From: a virus
Virus record (IMG/VR): IMGVR_UViG_3300018056_000002
Span: 1 to 44,790 of that record
DNA: 44,790 nucleotides
Reading direction: 5' to 3' (one strand)
The translations under genes were made by a program, and so were the position numbers. The notes under the pieces were generated by a model. The model was not told the origin of the DNA. It saw only the letters and a program-made list of their open reading frames with translations, and ran no database searches. Position 1 is the first letter of the stretch. The number at the start of each line of letters is the position of its first letter. Shown here one piece after another: positions 1 to 31,988 of this stretch.

Positions 1-123
1 AAGAGCTCAATCGTGCGCGCGCCGGCCGGCCCGGCATAGCCGCGCGTCCCCTCTTGCACGAGGCCGCCGAGCTCGCGCACCAGGACCATCGTATTGAGGG
101 CCGCGCTGAGCGCGTCGCGGCCG
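1..123. repeat. Direct terminal repeat copy 1 (identical to 44668-44790)
   Basis: Compared base by base: aagagctcaatcgtgcgcgcgccggccggc...gcgtcgcggccg occurs at both ends of the window. Confidence 0.95.
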
Positions 124-3100
124 ACGTCCTTCACAAACTCCTCGAGGTCGTCGCCGTCCGACTTCCCGAACAGGCGACTTAAGGCGACCGCGCCGACCGC
201 CGGCATCACGTAGAGCAGGGACAGATGGCCGAGGAAGGTCGCGACCGACGCCGGCGATTTGAAATTGGTCGCGCCGGCCTCGCGCGCCGTCGCGTTGAAA
301 ATCGTATTGCCGTAGCTGTAGAAGGTCAGGAACAGCCGCGCGACCGGACTCCCGCGCTGCACCTGCGCCAGGTCCTTGATCTGTCCGCCGCCTTGCGAGT
401 CGAGCACGGCCTGGTCGGCGAGGGCGATCGCGCGGGCTTCGTGCTCGCCGCTGGCCATTGATTTTTCGTACTGGCCGAGCCACGTCGGAATATCCGCGAC
501 GCGCTGCATCAGGCCGATGTGCCAGAGGTAGCTATCGAGGATCGTCTGCTGCGTGAGGGTGTCGAGGCTCACCGTCCGCACGAGCGCGTCGAACCAGCCG
601 CCGGGCTGCTGCAGCACTTTGCGGACGTCGCTCAAGTCCTGCGTCCCGGTCGTCACGCGCTCGCGCATCATCGGCGAGACGCTCGCGATCCAGCCGGCCG
701 TCGACTCCATCGACGCGCTGTCACGGAGCCAGCGGATCATCCCTTTCATGACCCACGTCGGCCCGACGCGGCTCATGCCGTTGAAGAGGCCGAGCGGCTG
801 CTGCGCGCCGGTCCACAGGTTGTAGCCCATCGCCGAGAGCTGCGTCCCGGTCCGCATGAAGGTCGCCGCCTTGTCGAGCGTCGAGATCGCCGGCTGGGTC
901 GACCCGATCGCGACGTCCTGCAGCAGCCGCGTGAACTGGTCGCGGACGAGGTCACCTTTCGTCTCGGTCAGCGCCGCCGACACCTGCCCGTCGCGCAAAA
1001 GCCGCGTCACGTCGATCAGCATCTCATGATGCGTCAGGTCATGGATGACCTGCTCGAGATGTTGGAAGACGACGCCGAGCTCGAGCCGGACCGGGAGCGT
1101 CACGTTCTGCTGACGCGCCTCGACGTGGCCGCGGCGCGTCGTCGAGCGGACATAGGACGCCGAGACGGCGAGCTTGGCCTCGGTCGCCGCGGCGTGCTGG
1201 CCGGCGCGCGCGGAGAGGCGCCCGTCGTAGGCGAGCGGGTAGTAGCCGCCGCGCTGCTCGCCGAACTTCGTCAGGACCGGGATCGCCTCGACCTTCTCCG
1301 GCGCGAGGCCCGTCACGCGCTGCTGCTTGGCGGCAATCTCGGGCCAGAAGGTATTGAGGTAATGCCATGTCGCTTGCACGAAGCGCCAGTCGCGCGCGTC
1401 GAGCGTGTCGAGAATCGCCTGTACCTGCGACCCGCTCCACTTGCGCGACGGATCCGCGAGCAGCCGGTCGCGGCTCGTCTGGTTGCCCCAATTCAGGGCG
1501 ACCGCGAGGCGGCCTTCTTTCGACAGACTGCCCTGGATCGCGGGGATGAACGTCTTCGTATTGAGCGTCGCGAGCTCGCGGCCAGGATAGTGCTCGGCAA
1601 GGATCGCCGTGTAGGCGGTGCCCGCCTCGCGCTTGCGCGTCGCTTCGGCGTCGGCTGCGGCGTTCAGCGGGCGGATGATCGCCTCCCACAGTGCGCCGCC
1701 GTCGACGTGGCCGTCGAGCGCGTGGACGAGCGTCGCGATCTTGGTGTGGCTGGCGAACCAATCGGCGACCTTGCGGTACTTCTCGTCTGCCGGCCGGAAC
1801 TCGAGCGGCATCGCGCGCGCCGTCGTGTGTTCCCGGATCGACGTCACCAGCCCGTCGCGCACGACGGCGAACTCCCGCGCGTCGGCCGCTTTTAAGAGCT
1901 TATTTTTCAGTCGCGCGAGATGCACGATCTGCGCGAGGCCGTCGGTAATGCCGACGAGCTCCTCGACCGTGACTTCCTGGTAGTTGATGCGCCGCGCATC
2001 GTTGAGCACCACCTCGGGCAGATCGTCGACCGGCAACCCTTCGCCCTCGAGCTCGGCGATCCACTTGCGGATCGCGGCCCGCCGCGCGAGCACCTTCGGC
2101 GCGACGGTCGCGAACTCGTAGCGGTCGAGAATGCCGTCGGCCTGGTCGAGATACCCAGCGCCGGCGAGGCCGAGCTGCTGCCGGGCGGGTCCCTTCCCGA
2201 GGGCCTGCGCCCGCGCCACGCGCGCCGCGACGTCTTCCATGACGCGCGCCGCTTCCCGGTAGAGCGCGAGGTTCATCAATTCCTGTTGCTTCGCGGCGAT
2301 CGCGCCGTCGACGTCCTGCCGGGCCGCGCTGTCGATCGCGGTCTGTGCCGCCCGCCGCGAGGCCGACCAGTAGAGCGCCGGCTTGACGGCCTGGATCTTC
2401 GTCTTCGCGATCCGGTCGCGGGCGAAGGCGCGGAGCACGGTCGCCGGCGGGAGGGCCGCCTGGATTCGCGCCGCGGCGCCGCGGGTCTGTTGCTTGAGAT
2501 GGCGGACCTGGTCGCGCAGCTCGTCGACCTCGACCTGCTTGCGTCCTTCGGCGATCGCGATCCGGAGCTTCGCTTCCGCCTCGAGCCAGCGGCGCTCGTA
2601 CGCGCGCTCCGGTTCGTCGACCGCCGCGGCGCTCGCGCGGGCGGTCTGCCGTTTCAGCGCGCCCAGCGCGGCCATCTCCTCGCGGATGACCTCCTCGCGG
2701 CCGTCGTTGGCGACCGCGGCCTGCGCCTTGGCGTGCAGCGTGCCGTCGAGGAGCAGACTCCCGTGCTCGGCGAGCATCCGGCGATCCGTCTCCTGTTGAA
2801 TCACGCCGCGCATCGCCGGCGCCGCGGTGATGGCGGTCAGGAGCTCGTCGGCGGAGGAGAAGCCGAACATCTCGGCGACGAGGGCCGGGTGGAACCCGCC
2901 CGTCACCGTGTAGAGGTACGGTTTGGGCAGCGCCTTGAGCCGCGCCTCGCCGAACTCGGCGACGAGGATCGCCCGCGAGAGCTTGAGCGGTTCCGGGGCG
3001 GCGCCTTCGGTCAGCGGCGAGCCGTCCGGGTTGGTGCCGCGCTGCATCGCCGCGAGCGCCCGGTAGACGGGTTGCTGATGGACGTCGGCGGCGACGGCCG

Positions 3101-6100
3101 CTTCGATCGTGGCGCGCGCGGCCTTCCATGCGGCCGTCTGTGCGCGCTGCACTTCGGCCAGCAGCTTGCGCTCGAGGGTTTCGCGCGCGAGCCGCGAGGC
3201 GTCCTGGACCTTCGCGGCGTAGCGGCTGAATGTCTGCTCGGACATCCCGGCCGCCGCCGCCGTCGTGAACATCGGTTGCACGCTGCCCGCTTGCTCCGCG
3301 TCGGCAATCGCCTGGTCGGTCGCGATCAGCCGGTCGAAGACGCCGCGCACCTCCGGCGACAGGTCCACCTTGAGCGATCGGAGCGACTTGTAGACGCCGA
3401 TCAGCCAGGCGCGGAAATTGGCGAACGCCGAGCGCAATTCGACGGACGGGGCCTTGCCCTCCATCAGGTAGGCTTCAAAGCCGCGCGCGAACTGTTCGTG
3501 CTGCGCGACGTCGATCGCCTGCCCGGTGTCGCCCTCGGGGAACAGCCACGCGCGCAGCGTCGTGAGGTCGCCGGCGATCGGCGGTGACGTCGGGGCGAGG
3601 TCCTGCAGCACCTCGAGGAAGAAATGTCCACTCTCGTGCAGGAAGGTCGAGAGGTCGGCGCGGGCGAAGAGGTTGATCGCGAATTGGCGATCGTCGCCGA
3701 AGGCGATCGAGCCGCGGCGCTCGGGCGTGTCGGCCGCGGCGGCGTTGGGCTGTTGGAAGAGGGCTTGCCCGCCGAGCACGGCGGTCCGGAGCTCGGGCGT
3801 CAGGGCGACCGCCGGCACCGTCACCGCCGCCGCGTGCTCCGCGATCCACGCCTCCGCGGCCGACCCGGACGCGAACACCGGCGCCGCGTCGATAAAGAGA
3901 TTCGTCCGGCGGTCAACCAAGCGCCAGCGTCCGCCGCCGACTTCGGTCAGGTCGTAGGGCGCGACGTCACCGGTTCGGAGGTCGACCGTCGCGACCTTGC
4001 CGCCGTTGCGCTTGACCGCGGGGAGCCCGTTGACGACGTTTTTGAAATCGACGTCATACAGGCGCTTGAGCCCTTCACCGCCGATCTTCAGATTCTCGCC
4101 GGCGAGACTGCGCTGCGGCTCGCTCTTCAGGTCAGCGTTCTGCCGGACCATCTCACCAGCGGCGTCTTCCTGACTGCCGTACGTGCCCATCAGCGTACCG
4201 TCCTGATACCGGATGCCCCATTGCGACCAGGAGCGCGACTCTGGCGTGTGCTCGGAGAGCGGCACTTCGACATAGTGCCCGGTGTCACCGCGGCCCCCCG
4301 CGCCCGCCTCGAACTCCACCGGCACGGCGCCGACGGCGTCACCTCGCGCGCGCAGTCGGGCCATCACGTCGCTTTCCTTGCGATCGCCTTCGCTCTGCTC
4401 GATCCGGTTGACGATCTCCTTGCCGACGAGCGCCTCGAGCTCCTTGAGCGTCGCGCCCATGCGCTCGGCTTGGTCGAGACTTCGGCCGTCTTTCCAGACG
4501 GTCAAGTTGTAGGTCCCATCTGCGCGCTTCGTGTAGCGGATCTCGTCGACCTGCTTCTCGAGTGAGTAGCGCGCCGCCTGCTGCTCACCGGTCGTCCATG
4601 CGACCGCGTCGAGGCCCTGCTCGGCGGCGTGGCGCAGCGCCCACTTGAAGCCGAGCTCGCGCCAGTTCTTCGTGAACAGCGCCGGCATCTTTTTTTGTTC
4701 GTCTTCGTGCGGCGGTTGGACCTCCTCGAGAAAGAGGACCCGCTGCCCGTCGACCGTCGTGCGCGTGTTCAGACGAATCCGGACGATCGGGTTCTCGATG
4801 TTGCTGTATTCCTCGTGTCCGTCCTCCCAGGTGCTCAGATGTCGGCGGCTCTGATGATGCGCCGTCCATTGCTCAAGCGCGTGCGGCACTTTCACGGTAT
4901 CCGCCTCTGCGGCGCCGACATAGAGCTTGCGCGGCTTGTCGTTCTCGAGCCAAGGCTTCCCGTTGACCGACACGGTATACGGAATCATGTTGCTGCCGGT
5001 CGGCTCGAACACCTGATCGACAGTAATAGTTGGCGGCGGCCCCGCAGTCGGATCGACCGGCGGCACCGTCAGGAACACTTCGCGGTAACTGCCAGGATCG
5101 CCGCCCGGCAGCACATATCTCGAATAACGGGTCTGGTCGGTACCATCCATCTCACGCTCAGCCTGTGCGAGGGCCTCGCCCCAATTGGCTGCGCTGCGGG
5201 CGTCCTCGAGCAGCAATTCGCGCCGTTTGTCCTCGAACGCCTCGCGGCGGTCCTCAACCGCGGCGTCGGCCGCCGCCTGCGCCTCGTCCTCGGTGTCGTA
5301 CCACTCGCCGAGGTCATCGCCGTCGACAGACGCCTCGTACTGCTGTTCGTCCTCGTCGAAGTGAATCGCGATCCGTCCATAGTCGTAGTGCGTGCCCTGC
5401 TCCTCGAGCCGGTCAACCTCGGCGTCGACCTCGGCGTCGTACAGCTCGGTCGCACGCACGTGGACAGCGTCCTTGTCCGGCCCCGCGTCGTCCTCGAGCG
5501 TCACGTCCTCGACCGTGACCGCGTTCGCCTGCAGATACTCGAGCACCTCCTGCCGGGTGTAGCTCCGGCCATCCTCGAGGTCGCCGACAGACGCGAGCGC
5601 GAACTCGTCTTTGTTGATCCCGATCTTCGCGTTGCGGATCGTCGCCTTCCACTGCGCGCCGCTCGCCTTCGCTTGCTTCGACTCTTCGACCGCACGGGTC
5701 AGCCGCGAGTAGAAGGTCGGCGCCGTAGACGCCGCCGCCGTCGGCTGCAGCACTTGAAACAGCGTCGTCTGTTTCACCTTCGCCTTTGCCGTCTCGCTCG
5801 TCAGGCTGAAGGGCGCCTCCATCGCCGGCGTCGCGACGTCCGTCTCGCGCACGGCGCCGACGTCGCCGGGAAGGCGCGGCTGCTGCTCGCCGGTGTCGAG
5901 GGTGTCGGCCTTGTCGACCTGTGCTGCCAGCCATCGCTCCCGCCCGGACAGGTCGGCGATGTGCTCGTCGATCTTGCTGAGTGTTGCTCGGGCCGCCTCT
6001 ATCGCCTCGTCTGGCGCGTCACTGACAATGCGCTCGAGCGCCTTGATCCGCTGCGTCCGCCAGGTCGCCAGCTTCGCGCGGACGTCCGCGAGGGTCGCCG

Positions 6101-9100
6101 CGAGTTGGCTCGCCATACCAGGCCCGCGCTCAGGCTCGCGCCCGATGCTCGCCTCATACGCCAGCAGTTGGTCCGCCTGCGACACCCGGCGCGGCTTGAG
6201 CGCCTGATCGAACTCCGTCACATCGAACGACGCATCGCCCTCGCCCTGATCGACCGCGTCGTCGAAGCCCTCCGACAGCGCCTCGATGAACGCCTCCGGC
6301 GCAACCGTCGCGTCCCGATGGGGCAGCGACACCTTCGACAGCAACGAGAAGTCGCCGGCGGCCCGCTGCTCTGCGACCCGGAGCACGCCTTCCTGCAGAT
6401 TGTTTGCGACGTCGGTCGTCGCCATCACGCCGCGGATGGCGGTGAGCACGGCCGCGCGGGTGCCGCGGGCCTGCTTGGCCGGTTTCCCGGCCTGCTTGCC
6501 GCGCTGCAGATTGACCGGCGACCACGCCAGCACGTCGTCATAGACCGGCGCGCCGGCGGCGCCTCCGGTGATGTCTGCGGACCCGCCGGCCGCGTTGCCC
6601 GTCTTCGGTCCCCCCTCCTCGATCCAGTTCCACGACTTACTGACGAAGGGAAAACTTTCCATCTCGTCGAGGATCCGCGCGAGCTCGCGATGGACCTCCG
6701 GCGTGAGACGCGCGCGGTTGGCTTCTAGGGAGTGTCGCTCGAAGACTTCGTCGACGTCGGGAAGTCCGGGGGTCGGTAGTCGGCCAGGATCAGCGCGGTC
6801 GTCAGCGCGTCCTGCTTCGACCAGCCCGCCCGCTTCAGCGTCAGGCTGTTCTGCAGGACGATCTGAAAGTCCTTGCCGGGTTTCAGGTGAATCTGTGGCA
6901 TCGGAAGCTGCTCCAGTCTGCGGTGTCGCAGGAGTCCTGTCAACGACCAATTCTGTCGGTGCCCACTTCGGCGACCGTTTGCGCGCTTCCTTGCGGTTTT
7001 TCAGTTGCACATCGGCGGTGTTGTAATCCGGGCCGATCGTGCCGCTGACGGAGACACTGACGCCATCAGTCGTGCGGGTGCCGACGAGAGCCTCGACACG
7101 GTTCCGGATCTGTTCGGCCACGCGCACGCCCGCGAGCACGGCAAACTCGTCGCCGCCGGTCCGAAACACCCGCTCGCCGAACCCGAACTCCGTCGCCGCC
7201 TGCTTGATGACCGCGGCAATGTCCTTCAGCGCGGTATCGCCGGCGACGTGCCCGACTTCGTCATTGAGCGCCTTGAAATTGTTCACATCGAAGGTGACAA
7301 ACGCCGTCTCAGGGTCGGCTTCCGCAGTCGCCTGCGCCCGTTCAAAGGCCGCGCGATTTGCCAGCCCGGTCAGCGGTTCGATGTCGGCAGTACGCTTGGC
7401 GTCGCGCAGTTCCGTCTCGAGCTGCTGAACATGCGCCTCCGATCCTCGCGCCGGAGCCTCCGCGGCTTGCGCAGGCATCGCCGCAGACGGCGCCGCCGGC
7501 GCCGCTGGCTGCGCCGCGACGGCGGCATCGGCGACAGCCGCGGCCTGCACATCAGGCCGCGCGATCGTGAGCCCGTAGCGCTCGTAGAGGGCCAAGGGGT
7601 CGAGGCCGGCGCGCGCCGCCAACGTGCCGAAGGTCGACTCGTAGAGTGTCGCGTAGCTCTCCGCGGTCGCTCGCGGCACGCCGGCCGCCTCGAGCTGCGC
7701 GAGCACCGCCACGCGCACCGGCGCCGCGGGCTCGGGCTCCGGCGTCGCAATCGCTTCCCCCGCAAGGTTGGCTTCGTACGCGGTCGCCTCGCGGACGTTC
7801 ATCTCGTCCGGACCGGCCCGGAGCTCGTTCACGAAAAACGCGTGATGGTCGGTGCCGGCGACCTTGGCGACGTAGCGCGCGGTCGGGATCGCGAGGTCCT
7901 GCCCGGTCGCCACGGCGGTCTGATACGACGCCGGATCGCCGGTGAGCTCCGCCGCCATCGCCGCCGGGTCGACGCCCTGTCCCTGCCAGTAGGTCGCGAA
8001 CGGGCCGACCGGCGCGTAGACGTGCTCGAGCGGGCCGCCCTTGACCGCCTGCGCGACGAGATCCTGCACCGCCTCCGGCGACCGCTGCAGCGTCTTCGAT
8101 TCACTGGCGGCCTCGCCCAGCTTCTCGAGGACGTGCGCCGTCGCGTGTGCGGCTGATGTCGTCGCGCCGACCGCGACGAGCGTGCTGATTGCGGTCGCGA
8201 CCATTGCGGACGGTTGCTCACGCGCGTAGTCGCCGAGCGTTTTCTCTTTATTCGACGGGAGCGCGGCCCATTCGCCGAGATTCTGCAACACCGTCGCGAC
8301 TTCTTCGGTCGCAATCTCTGGCACGATCTGCCCGATGAGAAGTTTCAGGAACGGGGTTTTCGCCGCGAGGCCGCCAAGGAGTTTCGTCGCCGGGATGTAT
8401 TCGGTCGCAACTTCCACCGCGCCCTGGAATCCGCCGAAGGCGAGCGATTTCTCGACGCCGACCCCTTGCTCGCGCGCCTGCGCGTAGGCTTGGCCGCCCG
8501 TGGTCACGCCGGCCACGCCGAGCATCGGCGCGGCGGACCCGCCCGTCAGCAGTGACAGCGCCAAACCGGGCGCCATCTGGCCGACTGACTCCACGCCGCC
8601 ATAGATGGATCGCTCGACGAAGCCGGCGCCGTGCTGCTCGCCGCGGGCTTTGTCGGCGAGGTATTTTGCGACCGCGGCACTGCCGCGCGCGAACTCGGCG
8701 ACGCGCGCGCTCACCGGCGTCGGCGGGATGAACGTCTCCCCGTCCCAGCGTCCGCCATCGTTGGCGCCTGTGGAGTACTTCGACTCGACCGAGAACGTCG
8801 GATGGCCGTGTTGCTTGTAGGTATCGGGAAAGTGCGGCCCATCCTCGTACGTTTTCCGCTGATCGCCGCCGGCGGAGGCGATGTCCTTCCAATAGCCGCG
8901 GTAGTCGTACTTGCTCTGTGGCGCATCGACATCGGTGATTTTGTTCGCGGTCACCCATGCCCGAAACGCCTGTTCGTCCTGTGGCGCAAGCGTGGTGACT
9001 TCCTTCGCGCCAGTCCCGACGACACCGGCCTGGAGTTCGTCGAGTGCGCTCACACTCTCCGCGCCCGCCTGAATCGCGCCCCAGGCGCCCGCTGAGAAGC

Positions 9101-9530
9101 CGGCGACGCCGGCTGACAGCGCGCCCGCGATGTTCCGGCCGATGCCGAGCGTGCGCTCGAGCGCGGACAGCGGCGTGTGATCGTCCTGCGCGACGGCAGC
9201 ATTCGACGGATTCGCGGCGAGCCATTCGCGGAGCCGCGGCGCCTCCTCGCCGACGCGCGACGCATCCTCGACCGTCGCGCGTTGCTTGAACGCCGTGAAG
9301 TTCTTCTCGACGATCGAGGGCGCCATCCCGAACCGATCGGCCAGCCGCCGCGCTTCGGCCGCCTGGTCCGGCGACTGCTGCCCGGCCTGCAGGACCGTCG
9401 TCCGCAGACGTGCGTCCTGCTCGGTCCGATGCTCACTGACGATGTCGTCGTAGGGGTTCGCGGCGGGCGTGGCGGTGGCCGGCTCGTCGGCGAGCTGCTC
9501 GACCGCGTCGTCGTAGGGGTTGAGCGCCAC
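1..9530 (-). CDS. Giant polyvalent virion/ejection protein, N-terminal 3,176 codons (runs off window start, continues at 44667->44466; 3,243 aa in total)
   Basis: The minus frame with codon first bases at coordinates equal to 2 mod 3 has no stop from about 9554 to 1. The ORF track lists no ORF in that frame here, as expected for an ORF with no stop inside the window. GTG start at 9530 overlaps the TAG of the upstream gene by 1 nt and is preceded by GGAAGGG. My translation reads VALNPYDDAVEQLADEP...; YDYRGYW...HPTFSVES (aa 208-247); GGDEF domain (aa about 711-837); FYSRLTRAVEE...; RVLFLEEVQPPHEDEQKK...WTTGEQQAARYSL; IGGEGLKRLYDVDF; FLHESGHFFLEVL (aa 1965-1969 HExxH); HEQFARGFEAYLMEGKAPS. These motifs are typical of large polyvalent proteins of phages and conjugative elements. 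The position, after the internal virion proteins, matches the T7 gp16 slot. Confidence 0.85.
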   Translation of the reverse strand, partial: MALNPYDDAVEQLADEPATATPAANPYDDIVSEHRTEQDARLRTTVLQAGQQSPDQAAEARRLADRFGMAPSIVEKNFTAFKQRATVEDASRVGEEAPRLREWLAANPSNAAVAQDDHTPLSALERTLGIGRNIAGALSAGVAGFSAGAWGAIQAGAESVSALDELQAGVVGTGAKEVTTLAPQDEQAFRAWVTANKITDVDAPQSKYDYRGYWKDIASAGGDQRKTYEDGPHFPDTYKQHGHPTFSVESKYSTGANDGGRWDGETFIPPTPVSARVAEFARGSAAVAKYLADKARGEQHGAGFVERSIYGGVESVGQMAPGLALSLLTGGSAAPMLGVAGVTTGGQAYAQAREQGVGVEKSLAFGGFQGAVEVATEYIPATKLLGGLAAKTPFLKLLIGQIVPEIATEEVATVLQNLGEWAALPSNKEKTLGDYAREQPSAMVATAISTLVAVGATTSAAHATAHVLEKLGEAASESKTLQRSPEAVQDLVAQAVKGGPLEHVYAPVGPFATYWQGQGVDPAAMAAELTGDPASYQTAVATGQDLAIPTARYVAKVAGTDHHAFFVNELRAGPDEMNVREATAYEANLAGEAIATPEPEPAAPVRVAVLAQLEAAGVPRATAESYATLYESTFGTLAARAGLDPLALYERYGLTIARPDVQAAAVADAAVAAQPAAPAAPSAAMPAQAAEAPARGSEAHVQQLETELRDAKRTADIEPLTGLANRAAFERAQATAEADPETAFVTFDVNNFKALNDEVGHVAGDTALKDIAAVIKQAATEFGFGERVFRTGGDEFAVLAGVRVAEQIRNRVEALVGTRTTDGVSVSVSGTIGPDYNTADVQLKNRKEARKRSPKWAPTELVVDRTPATPQTGAASDATDSPETRQGLSDRPAEQPDAEAGGLVEAGRADDRADPGRLPTPGLPDVDEVFERHSLEANRARLTPEVHRELARILDEMESFPFVSKSWNWIEEGGPKTGNAAGGSADITGGAAGAPVYDDVLAWSPVNLQRGKQAGKPAKQARGTRAAVLTAIRGVMATTDVANNLQEGVLRVAEQRAAGDFSLLSKVSLPHRDATVAPEAFIEALSEGFDDAVDQGEGDASFDVTEFDQALKPRRVSQADQLLAYEASIGREPERGPGMASQLAATLADVRAKLATWRTQRIKALERIVSDAPDEAIEAARATLSKIDEHIADLSGRERWLAAQVDKADTLDTGEQQPRLPGDVGAVRETDVATPAMEAPFSLTSETAKAKVKQTTLFQVLQPTAAASTAPTFYSRLTRAVEESKQAKASGAQWKATIRNAKIGINKDEFALASVGDLEDGRSYTRQEVLEYLQANAVTVEDVTLEDDAGPDKDAVHVRATELYDAEVDAEVDRLEEQGTHYDYGRIAIHFDEDEQQYEASVDGDDLGEWYDTEDEAQAAADAAVEDRREAFEDKRRELLLEDARSAANWGEALAQAEREMDGTDQTRYSRYVLPGGDPGSYREVFLTVPPVDPTAGPPPTITVDQVFEPTGSNMIPYTVSVNGKPWLENDKPRKLYVGAAEADTVKVPHALEQWTAHHQSRRHLSTWEDGHEEYSNIENPIVRIRLNTRTTVDGQRVLFLEEVQPPHEDEQKKMPALFTKNWRELGFKWALRHAAEQGLDAVAWTTGEQQAARYSLEKQVDEIRYTKRADGTYNLTVWKDGRSLDQAERMGATLKELEALVGKEIVNRIEQSEGDRKESDVMARLRARGDAVGAVPVEFEAGAGGRGDTGHYVEVPLSEHTPESRSWSQWGIRYQDGTLMGTYGSQEDAAGEMVRQNADLKSEPQRSLAGENLKIGGEGLKRLYDVDFKNVVNGLPAVKRNGGKVATVDLRTGDVAPYDLTEVGGGRWRLVDRRTNLFIDAAPVFASGSAAEAWIAEHAAAVTVPAVALTPELRTAVLGGQALFQQPNAAAADTPERRGSIAFGDDRQFAINLFARADLSTFLHESGHFFLEVLQDLAPTSPPIAGDLTTLRAWLFPEGDTGQAIDVAQHEQFARGFEAYLMEGKAPSVELRSAFANFRAWLIGVYKSLRSLKVDLSPEVRGVFDRLIATDQAIADAEQAGSVQPMFTTAAAAGMSEQTFSRYAAKVQDASRLARETLERKLLAEVQRAQTAAWKAARATIEAAVAADVHQQPVYRALAAMQRGTNPDGSPLTEGAAPEPLKLSRAILVAEFGEARLKALPKPYLYTVTGGFHPALVAEMFGFSSADELLTAITAAPAMRGVIQQETDRRMLAEHGSLLLDGTLHAKAQAAVANDGREEVIREEMAALGALKRQTARASAAAVDEPERAYERRWLEAEAKLRIAIAEGRKQVEVDELRDQVRHLKQQTRGAAARIQAALPPATVLRAFARDRIAKTKIQAVKPALYWSASRRAAQTAIDSAARQDVDGAIAAKQQELMNLALYREAARVMEDVAARVARAQALGKGPARQQLGLAGAGYLDQADGILDRYEFATVAPKVLARRAAIRKWIAELEGEGLPVDDLPEVVLNDARRINYQEVTVEELVGITDGLAQIVHLARLKNKLLKAADAREFAVVRDGLVTSIREHTTARAMPLEFRPADEKYRKVADWFASHTKIATLVHALDGHVDGGALWEAIIRPLNAAADAEATRKREAGTAYTAILAEHYPGRELATLNTKTFIPAIQGSLSKEGRLAVALNWGNQTSRDRLLADPSRKWSGSQVQAILDTLDARDWRFVQATWHYLNTFWPEIAAKQQRVTGLAPEKVEAIPVLTKFGEQRGGYYPLAYDGRLSARAGQHAAATEAKLAVSASYVRSTTRRGHVEARQQNVTLPVRLELGVVFQHLEQVIHDLTHHEMLIDVTRLLRDGQVSAALTETKGDLVRDQFTRLLQDVAIGSTQPAISTLDKAATFMRTGTQLSAMGYNLWTGAQQPLGLFNGMSRVGPTWVMKGMIRWLRDSASMESTAGWIASVSPMMRERVTTGTQDLSDVRKVLQQPGGWFDALVRTVSLDTLTQQTILDSYLWHIGLMQRVADIPTWLGQYEKSMASGEHEARAIALADQAVLDSQGGGQIKDLAQVQRGSPVARLFLTFYSYGNTIFNATAREAGATNFKSPASVATFLGHLSLLYVMPAVGAVALSRLFGKSDGDDLEEFVKDVGRDALSAALNTMVLVRELGGLVQEGTRGYAGPAGARTIEL
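3624..3638 (-). other. HExxH zincin-like metallopeptidase motif (HESGH) in the giant protein
   Basis: CAC GAG AGT GGA CAT on the minus strand, in the context ADLSTFLHESGHFFLEVLQDL, followed by HEQFARGFEAYLMEGKAPS. This module recurs in polyvalent proteins. Confidence 0.55.
6725..6901 (-). CDS. Embedded 58-aa ORF in an alternative frame inside the giant ORF
   Basis: ATG at 6901 is preceded by GGAG 9 nt upstream, with TAG stop at 6725-6727. Peptide: MPQIHLKPGKDFQIVLQNSLTLKRAGWSKQDALTTALILADYRPPDFPTSTKSSSDTP. Third-position G+C is 51/58 codons (88%) in this frame, against roughly 50% in the giant-ORF frame over the same bases. Confidence 0.5.
   Translation of the reverse strand: MPQIHLKPGKDFQIVLQNSLTLKRAGWSKQDALTTALILADYRPPDFPTSTKSSSDTP
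7020..7400 (-). other. GGDEF (diguanylate cyclase) domain within the giant protein
   Basis: Translation: DIEPLTGLANRAAFERAQ...AFVTFDVNNFKALNDEVGHVAGDTALKDIAAVIKQAATEFGFGERVFRTGGDEFAVLAG...VSVSGTIG...ADVQLKNRKEA. GGDEF is encoded at 7143-7157 (aa 792-796). All hallmark blocks are present: LTGLxNR, DxxxFKxxNDxxGHxxGD and RxGGDEF. There is no RxxD I-site five residues upstream. Confidence 0.8.
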
Positions 9531-29399: not shown

Positions 29400-29710
29400 G
29401 CCGCGCCCTTCTCCGGCACGAGCGCGACGGGAATCGGCAGGCGGCGCCGCGAGAAGCCGTACTGCCCCGACTCGAAGAGCCCCGCCGCGCGCCCGCACGC
29501 CGCCGGCGTCTCGTAGCCGAGCGAGTTGCCGATCGAGTCATCGACGCCGCGAACCCAGAAGCGCCGATCGATGACGGTGTAGAGGACCGTGTGCCGCGCG
29601 GCGAAGGGCTTGGTACAGACGACAAAGCGCCCGCTCGCGCTGACGGCCTGCACCGTGTAGGGGCGCGCTTCCTCCTGAAAGCGGAGCGTGTCGCCGACCT
29701 GCCAGCTCAC
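29396..29710 (-). CDS. Hypothetical protein (104 aa)
   Basis: ORF track. GTG start in a GTGA overlap with the methyltransferase stop. MSWQVGDTLRFQEEARPYTVQAVSASGRFVVCTKPFAARHTVLYTVIDRRFWVRG... Confidence 0.55.
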   Translation of the reverse strand: MSWQVGDTLRFQEEARPYTVQAVSASGRFVVCTKPFAARHTVLYTVIDRRFWVRGVDDSIGNSLGYETPAACGRAAGLFESGQYGFSRRRLPIPVALVPEKGAA

Positions 29711-30807
29711 GTCAGCCTCATGTCGAGATACGCTTCGATGAAGACTTGCGCGACTTGCGGGACGATGGCATTGCCGTAACCGCGCAGGCGTCCCACGCGG
29801 GCGGATACCCCATGAGCCACCGGGTATGTGCCGGGTTCAACTGGCCGCGCTTTCCCGTCCGCGCAGGGGAGCCAGTCGCATACCGACCAGTAACTTGATT
29901 CGTGAGTGATGGATGATGTGGACCGCCCGCCCCTTCGCAGTCCGCTGCCATCGGCGTCGCCCAACTCGCGAGCTGCGCCTGCAGGTTCAACGCGGTCACC
30001 GACGCGCCGAGTTGCTTCCCGCGTGCCTGCGCCTGCCGCTTGCGCGCGATCATCTGCTCCGCCGAGCCGCCCGCTTCGTCCGCGGTCGGCGTGTTCCAGC
30101 CGGCCAGGTTCGCCGCATCGGTCAACGTCAACCCCGGCGAGTGCGTCGCCGTTTTCTCGTAGCCGATCGAGGCCGACGAACACGCGTCCTGCCTCGTCGT
30201 CGTCGGCCAATGCGCCAGCATCGCGAAGTCCTGCAGGTTTGATCCGTGGCGCGTCTCGCCCATCGCGCGCTTCGCCTGCCCGTCGCGATGGGCATCGTGA
30301 ACCGTCGCGGTCGGCCACGAACCAGAGTCGCTGCCGGATGTGGAACGCGCCGACGCCCGCAGCCGGCAGACTGACCGCCCCGAGGGCGTACCCTTCCGGC
30401 TCCACGTCAGCGCAAACACGATCGAGCCATCCGTGCTTAATCGCTGCCTCAACCTGCTCACCAAAGACGACGCAAGGGCGGCACTCGCGCCAGAACTCGA
30501 ACCAGACAGGCCAAAGATCGCGCGGATCGTGCCCGCCAGCTTGGGCGCCAGCGCTCGAGAACGGCTGGCAGGGACAACTCCCGGTCCAGACTTCGCGATC
30601 ATCGGGCCAGCCGGCGAGCTTGAGCGCGTAGGCCCATCCGCCGATCCCGGCGAAGAAATGGCATTGGCCGAATCCTCGCACGTCGTCTGGCCGAACAAGT
30701 TCGATTGACCGTTCGTCGACTTCGCCATCAGGTATCTGCCCCGCCTTCATCAGTTCGCGCAGCCACGCCGCCGCGAACGGATCGACCTCGTTGTAATAGA
30801 CCGTCAC
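29707..30807 (-). CDS. Phage-type DNA (cytosine-5) methyltransferase (366 aa as a single frame; the central part is probably read in another frame, see findings)
   Basis: GTG 30807 in a GTGA overlap with the upstream gene. VTVYYNEVDPFAAAWLRELMKAGQIPDGEVDERSIELVRPDDVRGFGQCHFFAGIGGWAYALKLAGWPDDREVWTGSCPCQPFSSAG (PCQ motif IV), FGEQV (motif VI), FHIRQRLWFVA (motif VIII), C-terminal RLRGYGNAIVPQVAQVFIEAYL (motif X). Confidence 0.7.
   Translation of the reverse strand: MTVYYNEVDPFAAAWLRELMKAGQIPDGEVDERSIELVRPDDVRGFGQCHFFAGIGGWAYALKLAGWPDDREVWTGSCPCQPFSSAGAQAGGHDPRDLWPVWFEFWRECRPCVVFGEQVEAAIKHGWLDRVCADVEPEGYALGAVSLPAAGVGAFHIRQRLWFVADRDGSRCPSRRAGEARDGRDAPRIKPAGLRDAGALADDDEAGRVFVGLDRLRENGDALAGVDVDRCGEPGRLEHADRGRSGRLGGADDRAQAAGAGTREATRRVGDRVEPAGAARELGDADGSGLRRGGRSTSSITHESSYWSVCDWLPCADGKARPVEPGTYPVAHGVSARVGRLRGYGNAIVPQVAQVFIEAYLDMRLT
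29718..30728 (-). other. 336-codon open frame (+1 relative to the C5-MTase frame) with coding-like codon bias in its centre
   Basis: ORF-track entry 29718..30728. The central 132 codons (29922-30317) have third-position G+C of 116/132, against about 60% in the MTase frame. It encodes repeated W-x-T-(P/A/T) motifs (WPTAT, WPTTT, WNTPT, WATPM) and GQLNPAHTRWLMGYPPAWD, which resembles the methyltransferase LTPRE..LQGFP motif. Confidence 0.5.
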
Positions 30808-31064
30808 GCCGCGTGCCCCGTCGCCGGCGCCGGCATGAGCGTGTTGACCCGCCACACGCGGCGCGGAAACCCCTCAACTGACGCGTCGAGGCCGCAGACA
30901 ATCAGCCCGCGCGCCTGCAGGCGGAGCAGGGCGTTTCTCACGCCGTGCTCACTGATCGTCAAGGTCACGACGAGCTGACTCGCACTCTGCGGGCCGCGCT
31001 GCAGCCGCGCGTAGAGCAGGCGCTCAATTTGCCGGCCGCGTCTAGTCTGGGAATGGTTCTTCAT
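30804..31064 (-). CDS. Winged-helix (MarR/ArsR-like) DNA-binding protein (86 aa)
   Basis: ORF track. GGTGAGGTGA Shine-Dalgarno. ...LYARLQRGPQSASQLVVTLTISEHGVRNALLRLQARGLIVCG... Confidence 0.55.
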   Translation of the reverse strand: MKNHSQTRRGRQIERLLYARLQRGPQSASQLVVTLTISEHGVRNALLRLQARGLIVCGLDASVEGFPRRVWRVNTLMPAPATGHAA

Positions 31065-31073
31065 GTCGTCACC

Positions 31074-31988
31074 TCACCATCGCAAGCCCCGCTGCGCGGT
31101 CCGCGCGCTCGCGAGCGGCTGATAGCTCAGGTCGGTGCCGACCCACCGCCGCCCGAGGCGCTCGGCGACCGCGCCCACCGTGCCGGAGCCGAGGAACGGG
31201 TCGAGGACCAGGCCGCCGACGGGACACCCGGCGAGGATGCACGGCTCGACGAGCGCCTCCGGCATCGTCGCGAAGTGCGCGCCCGCGTAGGGCATGGTCG
31301 GGATCGTCCAGACCGATCGCTTGTTGCGCCCGCCTTGGCCGCCGTACGCAATCACACCGTTGCCCTGGCCGCCGCCTTTCACGTCGATGCCCGGCCGCGC
31401 CGAGTACAACTTTTTCATGATCCCCGCCGCGATCCGCCGCTTCGTGTCGCTCGGATTCTGCACACCGGCCGCTGCGTAGTCCTTCGTCCCCTCGCCGTCA
31501 TAGAACCCGCGGTCCGCCTCGCGGTCCTTGAGCGTCTGCTCGGCGTAAGGCTCGAAGATGGCCGGCGCGTCGTAGTGGTAGCGCTCGGACTTCGCGAGCA
31601 GGAACAGATACTCGTGCGCCCGCGTCGGCCGGTCCGTCACGCTCTCCGGCATCGGGTTCGGCTTCGACCAGATCGTGTCGGAGCGCAGATACCAGCCGTC
31701 CTCCTGGAGTGCGAACGCCACGCGCCACGGGATCCCGAGGAGGTCCTTCGGCTTGGTGTCGAGCACGAATCGCCTCCGACTGAACATCTGATGACCGATG
31801 CTCACCGCCGCAGTCGTCAACTGTTGCGTCTCTTTCCGACCGTCCCGCATCAATCCGCTCTTTGCAGTGCCGCCGCTGCCCTTCGTGGACGCAGCGTAGC
31901 TATCTCCCAAGTTCAGCCACACCACGCCATCGGCCGCGAGCACGCGCCGCACAATTCGGTCCGATCTGCGATCTTTTGTTATCAACAT
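31074..31988 (-). CDS. N6/N4-type (beta-class) DNA methyltransferase homologue lacking the N-terminal DPPY motif (304 aa)
   Basis: VVWLNLGDSY...DTIWSKPNPMPESVTDRPTRAHEYLFLLAKSERYHYD...RNKRSVWTIPTMPYAGAHFATMPEALVEPCILAGCPVGGLVLDPFLGSGTVGAVAERLGRRWVGTDL (AdoMet motif FxGxG at the C-terminus). No D/S-PP-Y/F motif occurs anywhere in the ORF, and the ORF opens only about 20 aa before the WxNxGD block. Confidence 0.65.
   Translation of the reverse strand: MLITKDRRSDRIVRRVLAADGVVWLNLGDSYAASTKGSGGTAKSGLMRDGRKETQQLTTAAVSIGHQMFSRRRFVLDTKPKDLLGIPWRVAFALQEDGWYLRSDTIWSKPNPMPESVTDRPTRAHEYLFLLAKSERYHYDAPAIFEPYAEQTLKDREADRGFYDGEGTKDYAAAGVQNPSDTKRRIAAGIMKKLYSARPGIDVKGGGQGNGVIAYGGQGGRNKRSVWTIPTMPYAGAHFATMPEALVEPCILAGCPVGGLVLDPFLGSGTVGAVAERLGRRWVGTDLSYQPLASARTAQRGLRW

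Follow-up and report, generated by a model that had tools for sequence, protein, structure and literature searches.

A conserved small open reading frame, probably a gene, nested in the +1 frame of a giant phage gene of internal-virion-protein-D type

The locus raises the question of whether a 58-codon open reading frame, contained within a giant phage gene on the same strand, is a gene in its own right, and how the giant frame accommodates it. The window, i.e. the whole stretch of DNA analysed, comprises positions 1 to 44,790 of IMG/VR record IMGVR_UViG_3300018056_000002 (44,790 nt). A preliminary description had noted two open minus-strand frames just after a GGDEF domain, with GGAG-N9-ATG at 6901 and TAG at 6725, all of which were present, and had proposed a nested or overprinted gene in a linker, a cassette brought in with the GGDEF domain, or a site of recoding. 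The relevant parts of the host gene are the following.

3..9530, minus strand: giant ORF (host gene), GTG start at 9530, free of stops, running off the start of the window.
7032..7382, minus strand: GGDEF (diguanylate cyclase) cargo domain, aa 717-833 (PF00990, E = 2e-16; GGDEF motif present), directly upstream of the nested ORF.
5991..6758, minus strand: conserved giant-frame domain (DEVFER...ARLTPEV.RELERI.DEL..FPF..RTW.W..KTGNAAGG...), without a Pfam name, always downstream of the nested ORF.

The full-length giant protein, read on the source contig, has 3,243 aa. It carries LPD22 at aa 45-128 (Pfam) and inserted cargo at about aa 680-1908, and its C-terminal 830 aa were 34-38% identical to SR18 gp040c and BPP-1 Bbp10 over about 810 aa; an LPD-type domain, enzymatic cargo and an IVP-D-like C-terminus are joined in one giant polypeptide. 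Judged from sequence, the host gene is a polyvalent protein of IVP-D type (for internal virion protein D; T7 gp16/BPP-1 Bbp10) and the source phage, in which an integrase is present, a temperate podophage resembling BPP-1 and SR18. Bbp10 is listed among the IVP-D homologues in PMC4819975. Exhaustive HMMER searching for the domain at 5991..6758 gave 74 hits, 29 of them at E < 1e-30 and mostly in giant proteins. The same domain had no match in INPHARED or PLSDB, and word-index searches with segments of the giant protein returned no matches, relatives being found only by exhaustive HMMER.

Codon usage was compared between the two frames over the nested ORF and the surrounding spacer.

6725..6901, minus strand: nested ORF (putative gene), 58 codons and TAG, in the +1 frame of the giant ORF, product MPQIHLKPGKDFQIVLQNSLTLKRAGWSKQDALTTALILADYRPPDFPTSTKSSSDTP; distinguished by GC3 (51/58), codon-usage likelihood and homologous ORFs in 14 further distinct IMG/VR loci.
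6759..6941, minus strand: giant-frame spacer, about aa 864-924, of low complexity and rich in P/A/G/D/E/R, GC3 about 0.35-0.45, free of stops.

The +1 minus-strand frame is open from 7002 to 6728, with the ATG at 6901-6899 and the TAG at 6727-6725, and the ORF 6901-6725 lies wholly within the giant ORF 9530-3 in another frame. The predicted +1-frame product includes the sequence DFQIVLQNSLTLK. Third-position G+C over the nested span was 51/58 (88%) in the +1 frame, exactly as first described, versus 27/58 (47%) in the giant frame; the whole giant gene has 0.857, and the earlier figures of about 50% locally and 85-90% elsewhere were borne out. A sliding analysis of codon-position G+C, which had been suggested as a check, was run and gave both a GC3 dip in the giant frame and a gain in the +1 frame at the locus. 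Giant-frame GC3 dropped to 0.27-0.35 in windows of 30 and 40 codons, the sole strong dip in the 3,243 codons of the gene. With a codon-usage likelihood trained on the other genes of the window, the +1 frame was favoured by up to 1.3 bits per codon, an advantage found in none of the other gene-interior 58-codon windows (about 8,300); further +1-positive windows were artefacts at the upstream ends of two stop-to-stop frames. Cumulative likelihood placed the switches of coding frame at 6941-6920 and 6761-6759. The giant-frame bias is therefore back by about 6760, some 35 nt short of the TAG, whereas the preliminary description had placed its return immediately beyond that stop. On these data the giant-frame sequence of the spacer appears to be dictated by the nested gene, yet kept stop-free. 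The linker of the preliminary description holds as to its position; its giant-frame peptide is not unique, a weak motif recurring in relatives as an out-of-frame shadow of the +1 peptide.

The same +1-frame peptide, with the consensus MP..LxPGxSFxxVLxNSLxLxRxGxSKxxALxxALNxAGYRPP, was found in 15 distinct loci (the window and 14 IMG/VR loci), each time a short way upstream of one and the same main-frame domain, and the nested ORF was present in 15/15 members with the downstream domain. Its most conserved part is as follows.

6767..6886, minus strand: conserved 40-aa core (L6-P45) of the nested product, predicted to form two helices (residues 10-24 and 29-39), delimited by tblastn and pN/pS.

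The core was matched by tblastn in the +1 frame at 36-60% identity in 14 of the 15 relatives having the domain, the copy in L009 being seen only by translation. This identity equals that of the giant-frame domain among the loci (41-55%), and the nucleotides of the core differ by about 40% on average among the 15 loci. L024 was recovered at E = 4e-14 by an HMM built without it, and pattern scans of IMG/VR, which added L024 and L027, returned nested copies only. Among close relatives that do not cover the region, L002 (an identical phage) breaks off at aa 741, L004 begins near aa 1060 and L005 is without it. Retention of the nested ORF in place in at least 14 other divergent phage genomes makes it look like a real gene and not a chance open frame. 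The preliminary description had held that the small frame would fall if relatives kept the giant-frame peptide and had stops in the 58-aa frame; the opposite was found, with no stop in any relative. Entry as a cassette together with the GGDEF domain did not survive the comparison: the ORF always accompanies the 'ARLTPEV...KTGNAAGG' domain, and relatives exist without GGDEF upstream.

Selection was estimated separately for the two frames. The pN/pS ratio was 0.76 (bootstrap 0.59-0.94) in the +1 frame versus 1.32 (1.06-1.73) in the giant frame, with P(alt >= main) = 0.002; that 0.76 falls no more than moderately short of 1 reflects saturated divergence and the dual coding of the frame. A control block coded in the giant frame (the domain at 5991..6758) had a ratio of 0.49 when read in frame and of 1.39 when read in its +1 frame. 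Across codon positions 1, 2 and 3 of the +1 frame, nucleotide variability was 0.40, 0.32 and 0.45, respectively, so that the wobble position of the giant frame is the least variable; synonymous change in the host frame is suppressed, as purifying selection on an embedded frame would have it. Mean amino-acid identity was 0.50 for the +1 frame versus 0.33 for the giant frame, and BLOSUM62 scores averaged 2.40, 1.08 and 1.24 per column for the +1, giant and third frames, respectively. These comparisons point to selection acting on the +1 frame and not on the giant frame. The giant frame was nevertheless open in 15/15 loci, with 0.53 expected per locus, which looks like true dual coding over a low-complexity spacer. 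Because the 15 loci share ancestry, probabilities that take them as independent err on the optimistic side.

Signals for initiation were sought upstream of the nested start.

6938..6943, minus strand: promoter-like -35 hexamer TTGACA, read in the sequence, exact consensus.
6915..6920, minus strand: promoter-like -10 hexamer cAgacT, 17 nt after the -35 hexamer and ending 13 nt before the ATG.
6911..6914, minus strand: Shine-Dalgarno (SD) motif GGAG, 9 nt before the ATG; other genes of the phage match in motif and spacing, e.g. caGGAGaacgattccATG.

An ATG or GTG preceded by an SD is conserved in the relatives, 2-18 codons ahead of the core. An SD 4-mer was present upstream of the nested start in 10/14 loci versus a background of 13% (P = 8.5e-7, which is optimistic, as it treats related loci as independent), and the second codon was Pro, giving a Met-Pro start, in 9/14 loci. 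In L007, L012 and L021, +1-frame stops stand just 2-4 codons before the start, leaving room for initiation only. TTGACA occurred at an equal distance from the nested start in L006, L007, L009 and L010, and TCGACA in L014 and L016; in relatives the hexamer is built from rare T-ending giant-frame codons. A sigma-70-like element (TTGACA-17-nAnnnT) located 7-14 nt before the start scored at least 9.5 in 7/15 loci, the window among them, versus 0/5,318 control windows, with the A at position 2 and the T at position 6 of the -10 hexamer constant in all seven, and was absent or weak in the other 8/15. A stricter generic promoter scan did not flag the element at 6915-6943, and no terminator-like site was seen within 6300-7500. 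Since the -10 hexamer ends 13 nt before the ATG, a very short leader is predicted; the promoter, where present, would set the transcription start downstream of the SD, and one transcript cannot use both.

The product was searched for by sequence and by structure. Eleven of 14 nested peptides matched phrog_2423 (PHROGs v4; 52-position profile, function not assigned) at E values from 3e-6 to 0.02, those of the relatives aligning to profile positions 3-38, and the length of this family (52) is near that of the nested ORFs. The window's own peptide did not match phrog_2423 at E <= 10. Neither the 58-aa nor the 91-aa peptide gave a hit in Pfam, PHROGs, INPHARED (tblastn), IMG/VR or a word-index protein search, and for the 58-aa sequence the word-index search covered a collection of 5.8 billion protein clusters and gave no candidate. 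An AF2 single-sequence model predicted a two-helix hairpin (core pLDDT about 78), in which the helices are separated by a 4-residue Gly turn. The window's peptide had no match in Pfam, the PDB or Foldseek (against PDB and BFVD), and no helix-turn-helix profile or fold was matched in the Pfam, PDB-sequence or Foldseek searches; a weak resemblance to the C-terminus of HemK methyltransferase (E = 1.5) was judged spurious. PADLOC found nothing. No free-standing copy was present in BPP-1, the examined part of SR18, L004, L005 or the rest of the window, and no case was found of the +1 peptide being encoded in frame within homologous proteins. A GTDB genome scan for the nested peptide returned chance motif hits only, and INPHARED, PLSDB and GTDB yielded no cultured phage or sequenced lysogen with the locus. 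A 118-nt direct repeat, considered as a frame-offset duplication, came to a 20-nt match at 80% and was judged to be chance.

Taken together, the results make it probable that the ORF from ATG 6901 to TAG 6725 is a real gene for a protein, contained in a giant IVP-D-type gene but read in its +1 frame, with start signals of its own and with the giant frame kept open across it. The idea of a nested or overprinted gene in a linker is in this way strengthened by a +1 peptide that is the better conserved one in 15 loci, and by a start, an SD and often a promoter that are kept. To ribosomes on the giant mRNA the stretch would be a low-complexity spacer, passive in role, that links the GGDEF cargo to the conserved domain after it. 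Other ribosomes, initiating on their own, would make a small soluble protein of about 58 aa that is rich in Pro at its N-terminus, forms a two-helix hairpin over a 40-aa core and has a tail free of constraint. These ribosomes may initiate via the SD on the late mRNA, or else the internal promoter may supply them with a transcript that has a short leader or none. Such a promoter would allow host RNA polymerase to transcribe the small gene separately from the late structural operon, in the manner of a moron in a prophage or of an early gene. Our best guess is that the product may be a small binding protein, regulatory or directed at the host, and possibly helix-turn-helix-like to judge from the predicted helices and a reading of the motif; less probably, it serves the giant ejection protein as an accessory factor. 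More tentatively, and with the odds against it, the giant gene may have 'swallowed' a working small gene of the phrog_2423 kind, which would keep its own promoter, SD and start and its own schedule, being expressed in the prophage or immediately on DNA entry from a leaderless or short-leader mRNA as an HTH-like regulator or host-directed factor, in effect a hidden moron.

The +1 peptide might instead be joined to the giant protein by programmed frameshifting and never be released as a free protein, a reading we regard as unlikely. Either a +1 shift would end a truncated N-terminal (LPD22-GGDEF) product with the +1 peptide, or internal initiation would be followed by a -1 shift near 'YRPP' that attaches the C-terminal 2,300 aa to the peptide. 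Stimulation of frameshifting by SD-like motifs is established for prfB and dnaX. In all the loci, conserved coding does switch at YRPP itself from the +1 frame to the giant one, and the window has a C5 run at the junction (cgaCCCCCgg). Across loci, however, no X XXY YYZ heptamer or homopolymer is shared at or after YRPP, where the sites read, for example, CGGCCGCCG, CGACCACCC and CGTCCCTCA, and the tail from core to stop varies from 11 to 50 codons and in sequence, without a conserved element. The recoding site first proposed accordingly lacks a conserved signal at the frame junction; conserved in its place are the start codon and the SD, with stops 2-4 codons before the start in L007, L012 and L021, and the giant frame being open, the full protein needs no shift.

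Conservation at the level of DNA or RNA, through an internal promoter, a regulatory site or an RNA structure to which the +1 ORF would be incidental, is very unlikely. It would draw on the significant enrichment of the sigma-70-like promoter just upstream and on the unusual conservation of synonymous sites in the giant frame. The promoter, however, lies upstream of the conserved 120-nt core and not inside it, variability in the core repeats every three nucleotides and peaks at the +1-frame wobble position, and the replacements are conservative (L/I/V/M, K/R). No Rfam match was obtained for the locus, whereas relatives match a protein family profile.

Highly improbable, and largely refuted, is a fossil, in which a small gene that once stood apart, or a double frameshift that was compensated, has left a remnant translated today in the giant frame alone, the +1 signal being decaying history or an assembly error in the contig. 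The +1 frame does use codons in the 'older' way that is typical of the genome and the giant frame uses them atypically, and changing one base in the C-run would bring the two frames together. Frame and bias would, however, have been lost in such a remnant, whereas ORF, start and SD are intact across 15 loci that differ so widely in the core. This conservation also rules out a single-base frameshift or compensated indel at the C5 run, and the same arrangement in independent assemblies excludes an assembly error.

A compositional artefact, in which a G/A/D/E/P/R-rich linker puts G/C at first codon positions of the giant frame and so yields a high +1 'GC3', and the +1 likeness is the shadow of a giant-frame motif (EQPGAD..EG.GDG..RRLP.P), is already refuted and scarcely tenable. 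In its favour, exhaustive searching did align the giant-frame peptide with relatives, and chance leaves the +1 frame open in 46% of the 50-codon windows of these GC-rich genes. Against it, conservation of that motif falls short of that of the +1 peptide and does not exceed that of the third frame; third positions of the giant frame are the least variable and are A/T-rich (the reverse of a coding frame here); a pN/pS of 1.32, as obtained for the giant frame, is what a shadow frame gives; and the conservation of start, SD and promoter is left unexplained.

The host gene shares its embedded-cargo architecture with polyvalent proteins (Iyer et al. 2017, PMC5512222) and IVP-D proteins (Hardies et al. 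2016, PMC4819975), and the nested gene would be an addition to the picture given there. In a term search, PMC5512222 gave neither 'overlapping' nor 'frameshift', and PMC4819975 no 'frameshift' and one unrelated 'overlapping'; a literature search found no description of the nested gene.

Fully nested same-strand genes are never reported by gene callers, so the whole nested family is missing from databases. The in-silico support for this one is unusually complete, extending over codon bias, direction of selection, start codon, SD and promoter across divergent genomes, and suggests that 'linkers' in giant polyvalent or ejection proteins can be dual-coding. The locus offers a clean model for studying how a long ORF copes with a segment whose sequence another gene dictates, and whether nested genes are expressed apart from the late operon, and knock-outs of the nested gene can be designed to be silent in the host frame. 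If the giant gene did swallow a small one, giant polyvalent and ejection-protein genes could generally hide unannotated genes, and a moron could sit in the second frame of a structural gene, invisible to standard annotation.

Among known systems, the lambda pair Rz/Rz1 is close in layout. There Rz1, with a translation start of its own, occupies the +1 frame inside Rz, both frames are translated and related phages keep the layout; the present locus likewise has a small same-strand gene inside a larger phage gene, in the +1 frame and with its own start. Unlike Rz1, the 58-aa product is without a signal peptide, lipobox, Cys or hydrophobic N-terminal segment, and is therefore not an o-spanin; its host is a putative giant virion or ejection protein gene and not a lysis gene, the overlapped part of the host is an unconstrained spacer, and the nested gene often has its own candidate promoter. 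Morons such as lambda bor and lom or HK97 gp15 are extra late-region genes with their own promoter. The nested gene resembles them in being a small gene in the late structural region of what appears to be a temperate phage, and may do so in its own sigma-70-type candidate promoter, an element that scored in 7/15 loci; it differs in lying inside a coding sequence, in having no terminator-like site within 6300-7500 and in being conserved across a phage group and not sporadic. As in the overprinted genes of phiX174 and RNA viruses, synonymous variability in the annotated frame is suppressed and the second frame is codon-like. In the usual picture of overprinting it is the new frame that is disordered. 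Here, unlike in small viruses, the nested frame has genome-typical codons and encodes a foldable peptide, and the long annotated frame is the disordered and atypical one.

The second open frame claimed in the preliminary description, with its GGAG-N9-ATG and TAG, was found on the minus strand within the giant ORF. The features concerned are:

Start GTG at 9530, extending past the window start, minus strand: giant ORF, 3,243 aa on the source contig
Giant-protein aa 45-128, minus strand: LPD22 (Pfam)
Giant-protein aa 717-833 (window 7032-7382), minus strand: GGDEF (Pfam)
7002 to 6728, minus strand: open +1 frame, each codon beginning one base into a giant-frame codon
6943-6938 and 6920-6915, minus strand: -35 and -10 of the predicted promoter of the nested gene (sigma-70-like score)
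6914-6911, minus strand: Shine-Dalgarno GGAG, 9-nt spacer to the ATG
6901-6899, minus strand: nested ORF start, ATG
6727-6725, minus strand: nested ORF stop, TAG

Third-position G+C (GC3) was 51/58 in the nested frame and 27/58 in the giant frame across this stretch, matching the 88% and roughly 50% reported beforehand. In sliding windows, giant-frame GC3 dropped here to 0.27–0.35 (whole gene 0.857), the sole strong dip among the 3,243 codons of the giant ORF. Codon-usage likelihoods, trained on the window's other genes and calculated in 58-codon windows, gave the +1 frame an advantage of as much as 1.3 bits per codon at the nested ORF, and no +1 preference was found in any other gene-interior window of that length (approximately 8,300). 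By cumulative likelihood, the coding signal passes to the +1 frame at approximately 6940–6920 and back to the giant frame at 6761–6759, that is, approximately 35 nt before the TAG and not directly after it as had been described. A far weaker second GC3 dip (minimum 0.57) was seen at window 5073-5177 (minus strand, giant aa 1452-1486), where the likelihood scan gave no advantage to an alternative frame.

Searches with the 58-aa peptide gave no match in Pfam, PHROGs, INPHARED, IMG/VR or a word-index protein database, and giant-protein segments gave none in the word-index search. Exhaustive HMMER searching with giant aa 841-1180 returned 74 matches (29 at E < 1e-30), nearly all of them giant proteins of 1.6–4 kaa, which shared a weak giant-frame 'linker' motif, ..EQPGAD.GG..EG.GDG..EP.RLP.P.., a conservation that at face value spoke against the nested frame. 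Searching with an alignment (A1) of the domain directly downstream of the nested gene yielded 18 IMG/VR loci with DNA, and a DNA pattern scan added one further distinct family member on two contigs (L024/L027); the comparison set was defined as the 15 distinct loci with the domain in a giant ORF. This domain (approximately 250 aa, without a Pfam name; window 5991-6758, minus strand) is well conserved among the giant-protein homologs P0001-P0037, with the consensus ARLTPEV.RELERI.DEL..FPF..RTW.W..KTGNAAGG.A.I..G.AGA.VY.DVL...P.N...NL.EGA.RVAE.R, and is found in dozens of giant phage proteins as well as in shorter ones of 800–960 aa (loci L020, L022 and L023). At these three distant loci codon bias was normal and no +1 signal was found upstream of the domain, so the nested gene is particular to the giant-protein subfamily.

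In 15/15 loci giant-frame GC3 dipped (0.47–0.67 versus approximately 0.73–0.94 in the flanks), and in all of them the +1 frame encoded a clearly homologous peptide ending just before the giant-frame domain, with the consensus (alignment A2) (M)P..LxPGxSFxxVLxNSLxLxRxGxSKxxALxxALNxAGYRPP. Identity to the window's copy was 36–60% for the nested peptides, equal to that of the adjacent domain (41–55%). On the ungapped 40-codon core, mean pairwise nucleotide difference was 0.40/0.32/0.45 at +1-frame positions 1/2/3, with least variation at the position that is third in giant-frame codons; the values for a control block whose coding frame is the giant frame were 0.20/0.16/0.48. Core pN/pS was 0.76 in the +1 frame (bootstrap 0.59–0.94) and 1.32 in the giant frame (1.06–1.73), compared with 0.49 in the true frame of the control block and 1.39 in its +1 shadow. 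Mean amino-acid identity (0.50, 0.33 and 0.36) and BLOSUM62 score per column (2.40, 1.08 and 1.24, for the +1, giant and third frames, respectively) also favoured the +1 frame, which is therefore the one that relatives conserve better. The giant-frame linker motif is thus a shadow of the nested peptide: for example, its 'EQP' is forced by +1-frame 'NSL', and its 'EG.GDG' by 'SKGQAMA'. An antisense frame of 160 codons (window 6544-7023, plus strand) also covers the region; by its coordinates, its wobble falls on the least variable, A/T-richer position, and it was rejected as a GC-rich shadow ORF.

Across the nested gene the giant frame has no stop in 15/15 loci (in these genes, frames offset in this way from a coding frame run for 60 codons without a stop in only 53% of cases), and in Caulobacter phage SR18 and Bordetella phage BPP-1 both flanks of the region belong to one protein. 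From these two observations we conclude that the stretch is probably dual coding, for the nested gene and for a giant protein that would read it as a low-complexity spacer. With the +1 peptide conserved and start and Shine-Dalgarno signals kept, this upholds the earlier suggestion of an overprinted gene in a linker. The recoding site suggested as an alternative, by which a frameshift at the YRPP junction would join the nested frame to the giant frame, is opposed by the lack of a conserved slippery heptamer or homopolymer at that junction and by a distance from core to stop that varies from 11 to 50 codons. Arrival as a small cassette together with the GGDEF domain, also put forward earlier, is not supported, since in most relatives that carry the nested gene the sequence upstream is a different one. 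The direction of selection rules out a compositional by-product of the giant frame, and retention of the arrangement in genomes that were assembled independently and diverge by approximately 40% in core nucleotides rules out a fossil or assembly error.

Relatives have an ATG or GTG 2–18 codons before the core, and the second codon is Pro in 9/14 loci with a usable start. A Shine-Dalgarno 4-mer (GGAG, GAGG or AGGA) lies 4–16 nt before the start in 10/14 loci, compared with 13% of background positions (P = 8.5e-7); the GGAG-N9-ATG of the window has the motif and spacing of other genes of the same phage. In three loci (L007, L012 and L021) a +1-frame stop codon stands 2–4 codons ahead of the start, which leaves initiation, or a shift inside some 12 nt, as the only way into the frame there. 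Sigma-70-like promoters (TTGACA or TCGACA, 16–17-nt spacer, nAnnnT) were predicted in 7/15 loci, the window among them, and end 7–14 nt ahead of the start codon; of the control windows (70 nt each, taken from these loci), 0/5,318 scored as high. In different lineages the exact TTGACA is made up of rare T-ending giant-frame codons (GTT, ATT, CTT), which points to selection for the hexamer as such. Given the predicted leader of 0–7 nt, transcripts from this promoter would be leaderless or nearly so, and the Shine-Dalgarno sequence may serve translation off the long late mRNA.

AlphaFold2 (single sequence) predicted two helices for the nested product (residues 10-24 and 29-39, core pLDDT approximately 78) followed by a disordered tail; in our reading of the motif, the two modelled helices with a Gly turn between them are similar to a helix-turn-helix unit. 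Foldseek (PDB, BFVD), a PDB profile search, Pfam and PADLOC returned nothing meaningful. The function-unassigned phrog_2423 (52 positions) was matched by 11/14 family members at profile positions 3-38 (best E = 3e-6), the window's own peptide falling below threshold. No free-standing copy of the gene was found in BPP-1, the fetched part of SR18, the JGI metagenome contigs L004 and L005, the rest of the window, or IMG/VR or GTDB genomes.

The window represents approximately the entire 44.8-kb metagenome contig ENA ERZ27268075 k141_1023319 (67.7% G+C), and its genes (major head protein, portal/adaptor, terminase subunits, two DNA methyltransferases, replication initiator, Erf-like recombinase and integrase) point to a temperate tailed phage. 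The two methyltransferase genes adjoin (window 29707-30855 and 31074-31988, both minus strand) and contain 140–225-nt stretches that share 76–86% DNA identity with methyltransferase genes from widely differing phages, a Methanoculleus virus among them. A contig from another sequencing run (L002, Logan SRR7006849_7329, 6,745 nt) shows 100% identity across the 6.7 kb that lead up to and enter the giant gene, so a second dataset holds the same phage; it stops at giant aa 741, short of the nested gene. The C-terminal ~830 aa of the giant protein are 34–38% identical to SR18 gp040c and BPP-1 Bbp10, the latter placed among the homologs of T7 internal virion protein D by Hardies et al. (PMC4819975), according to whom proteins of this type carry cargo domains bound for the cytoplasm. 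Only aa 312-680 and 1908-3240 could be aligned with SR18 gp040c, so that aa ~680-1908, with the GGDEF domain and the nested-gene region, are inserted cargo. Between conserved N- and C-terminal parts the cargo varies in L004 and L005, which indicates modular exchange; the L005 protein (2,640 aa) is without the entire GGDEF/nested-gene/domain block. The GGDEF motif is present (RTGGDEFAVL; window 7032-7382, minus strand) in this virion/ejection-type protein and GGDEF occupies an equivalent place in several relatives (P0003, P0005 and P0021), so a diguanylate cyclase might enter the cell together with the phage DNA; polyvalent proteins with GGDEF are mentioned by Iyer et al. 2017.

Literature searches found no description of such a nested gene, and term searches of the polyvalent-protein paper and the internal virion protein D paper (PMC4819975) gave no mention of one. 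The closest architectural precedent is Rz1 inside Rz, likewise in the +1 frame with its own start, but the nested product here is no lipoprotein, and its host gene encodes a virion or ejection protein. An internal predicted promoter in a temperate phage is reminiscent of morons; unlike these, the nested gene lies inside coding sequence, is without a terminator and is present throughout the subfamily. On the sequence comparisons, we would rate it as an embedded overlapping gene, a known class, with unusually complete comparative support.
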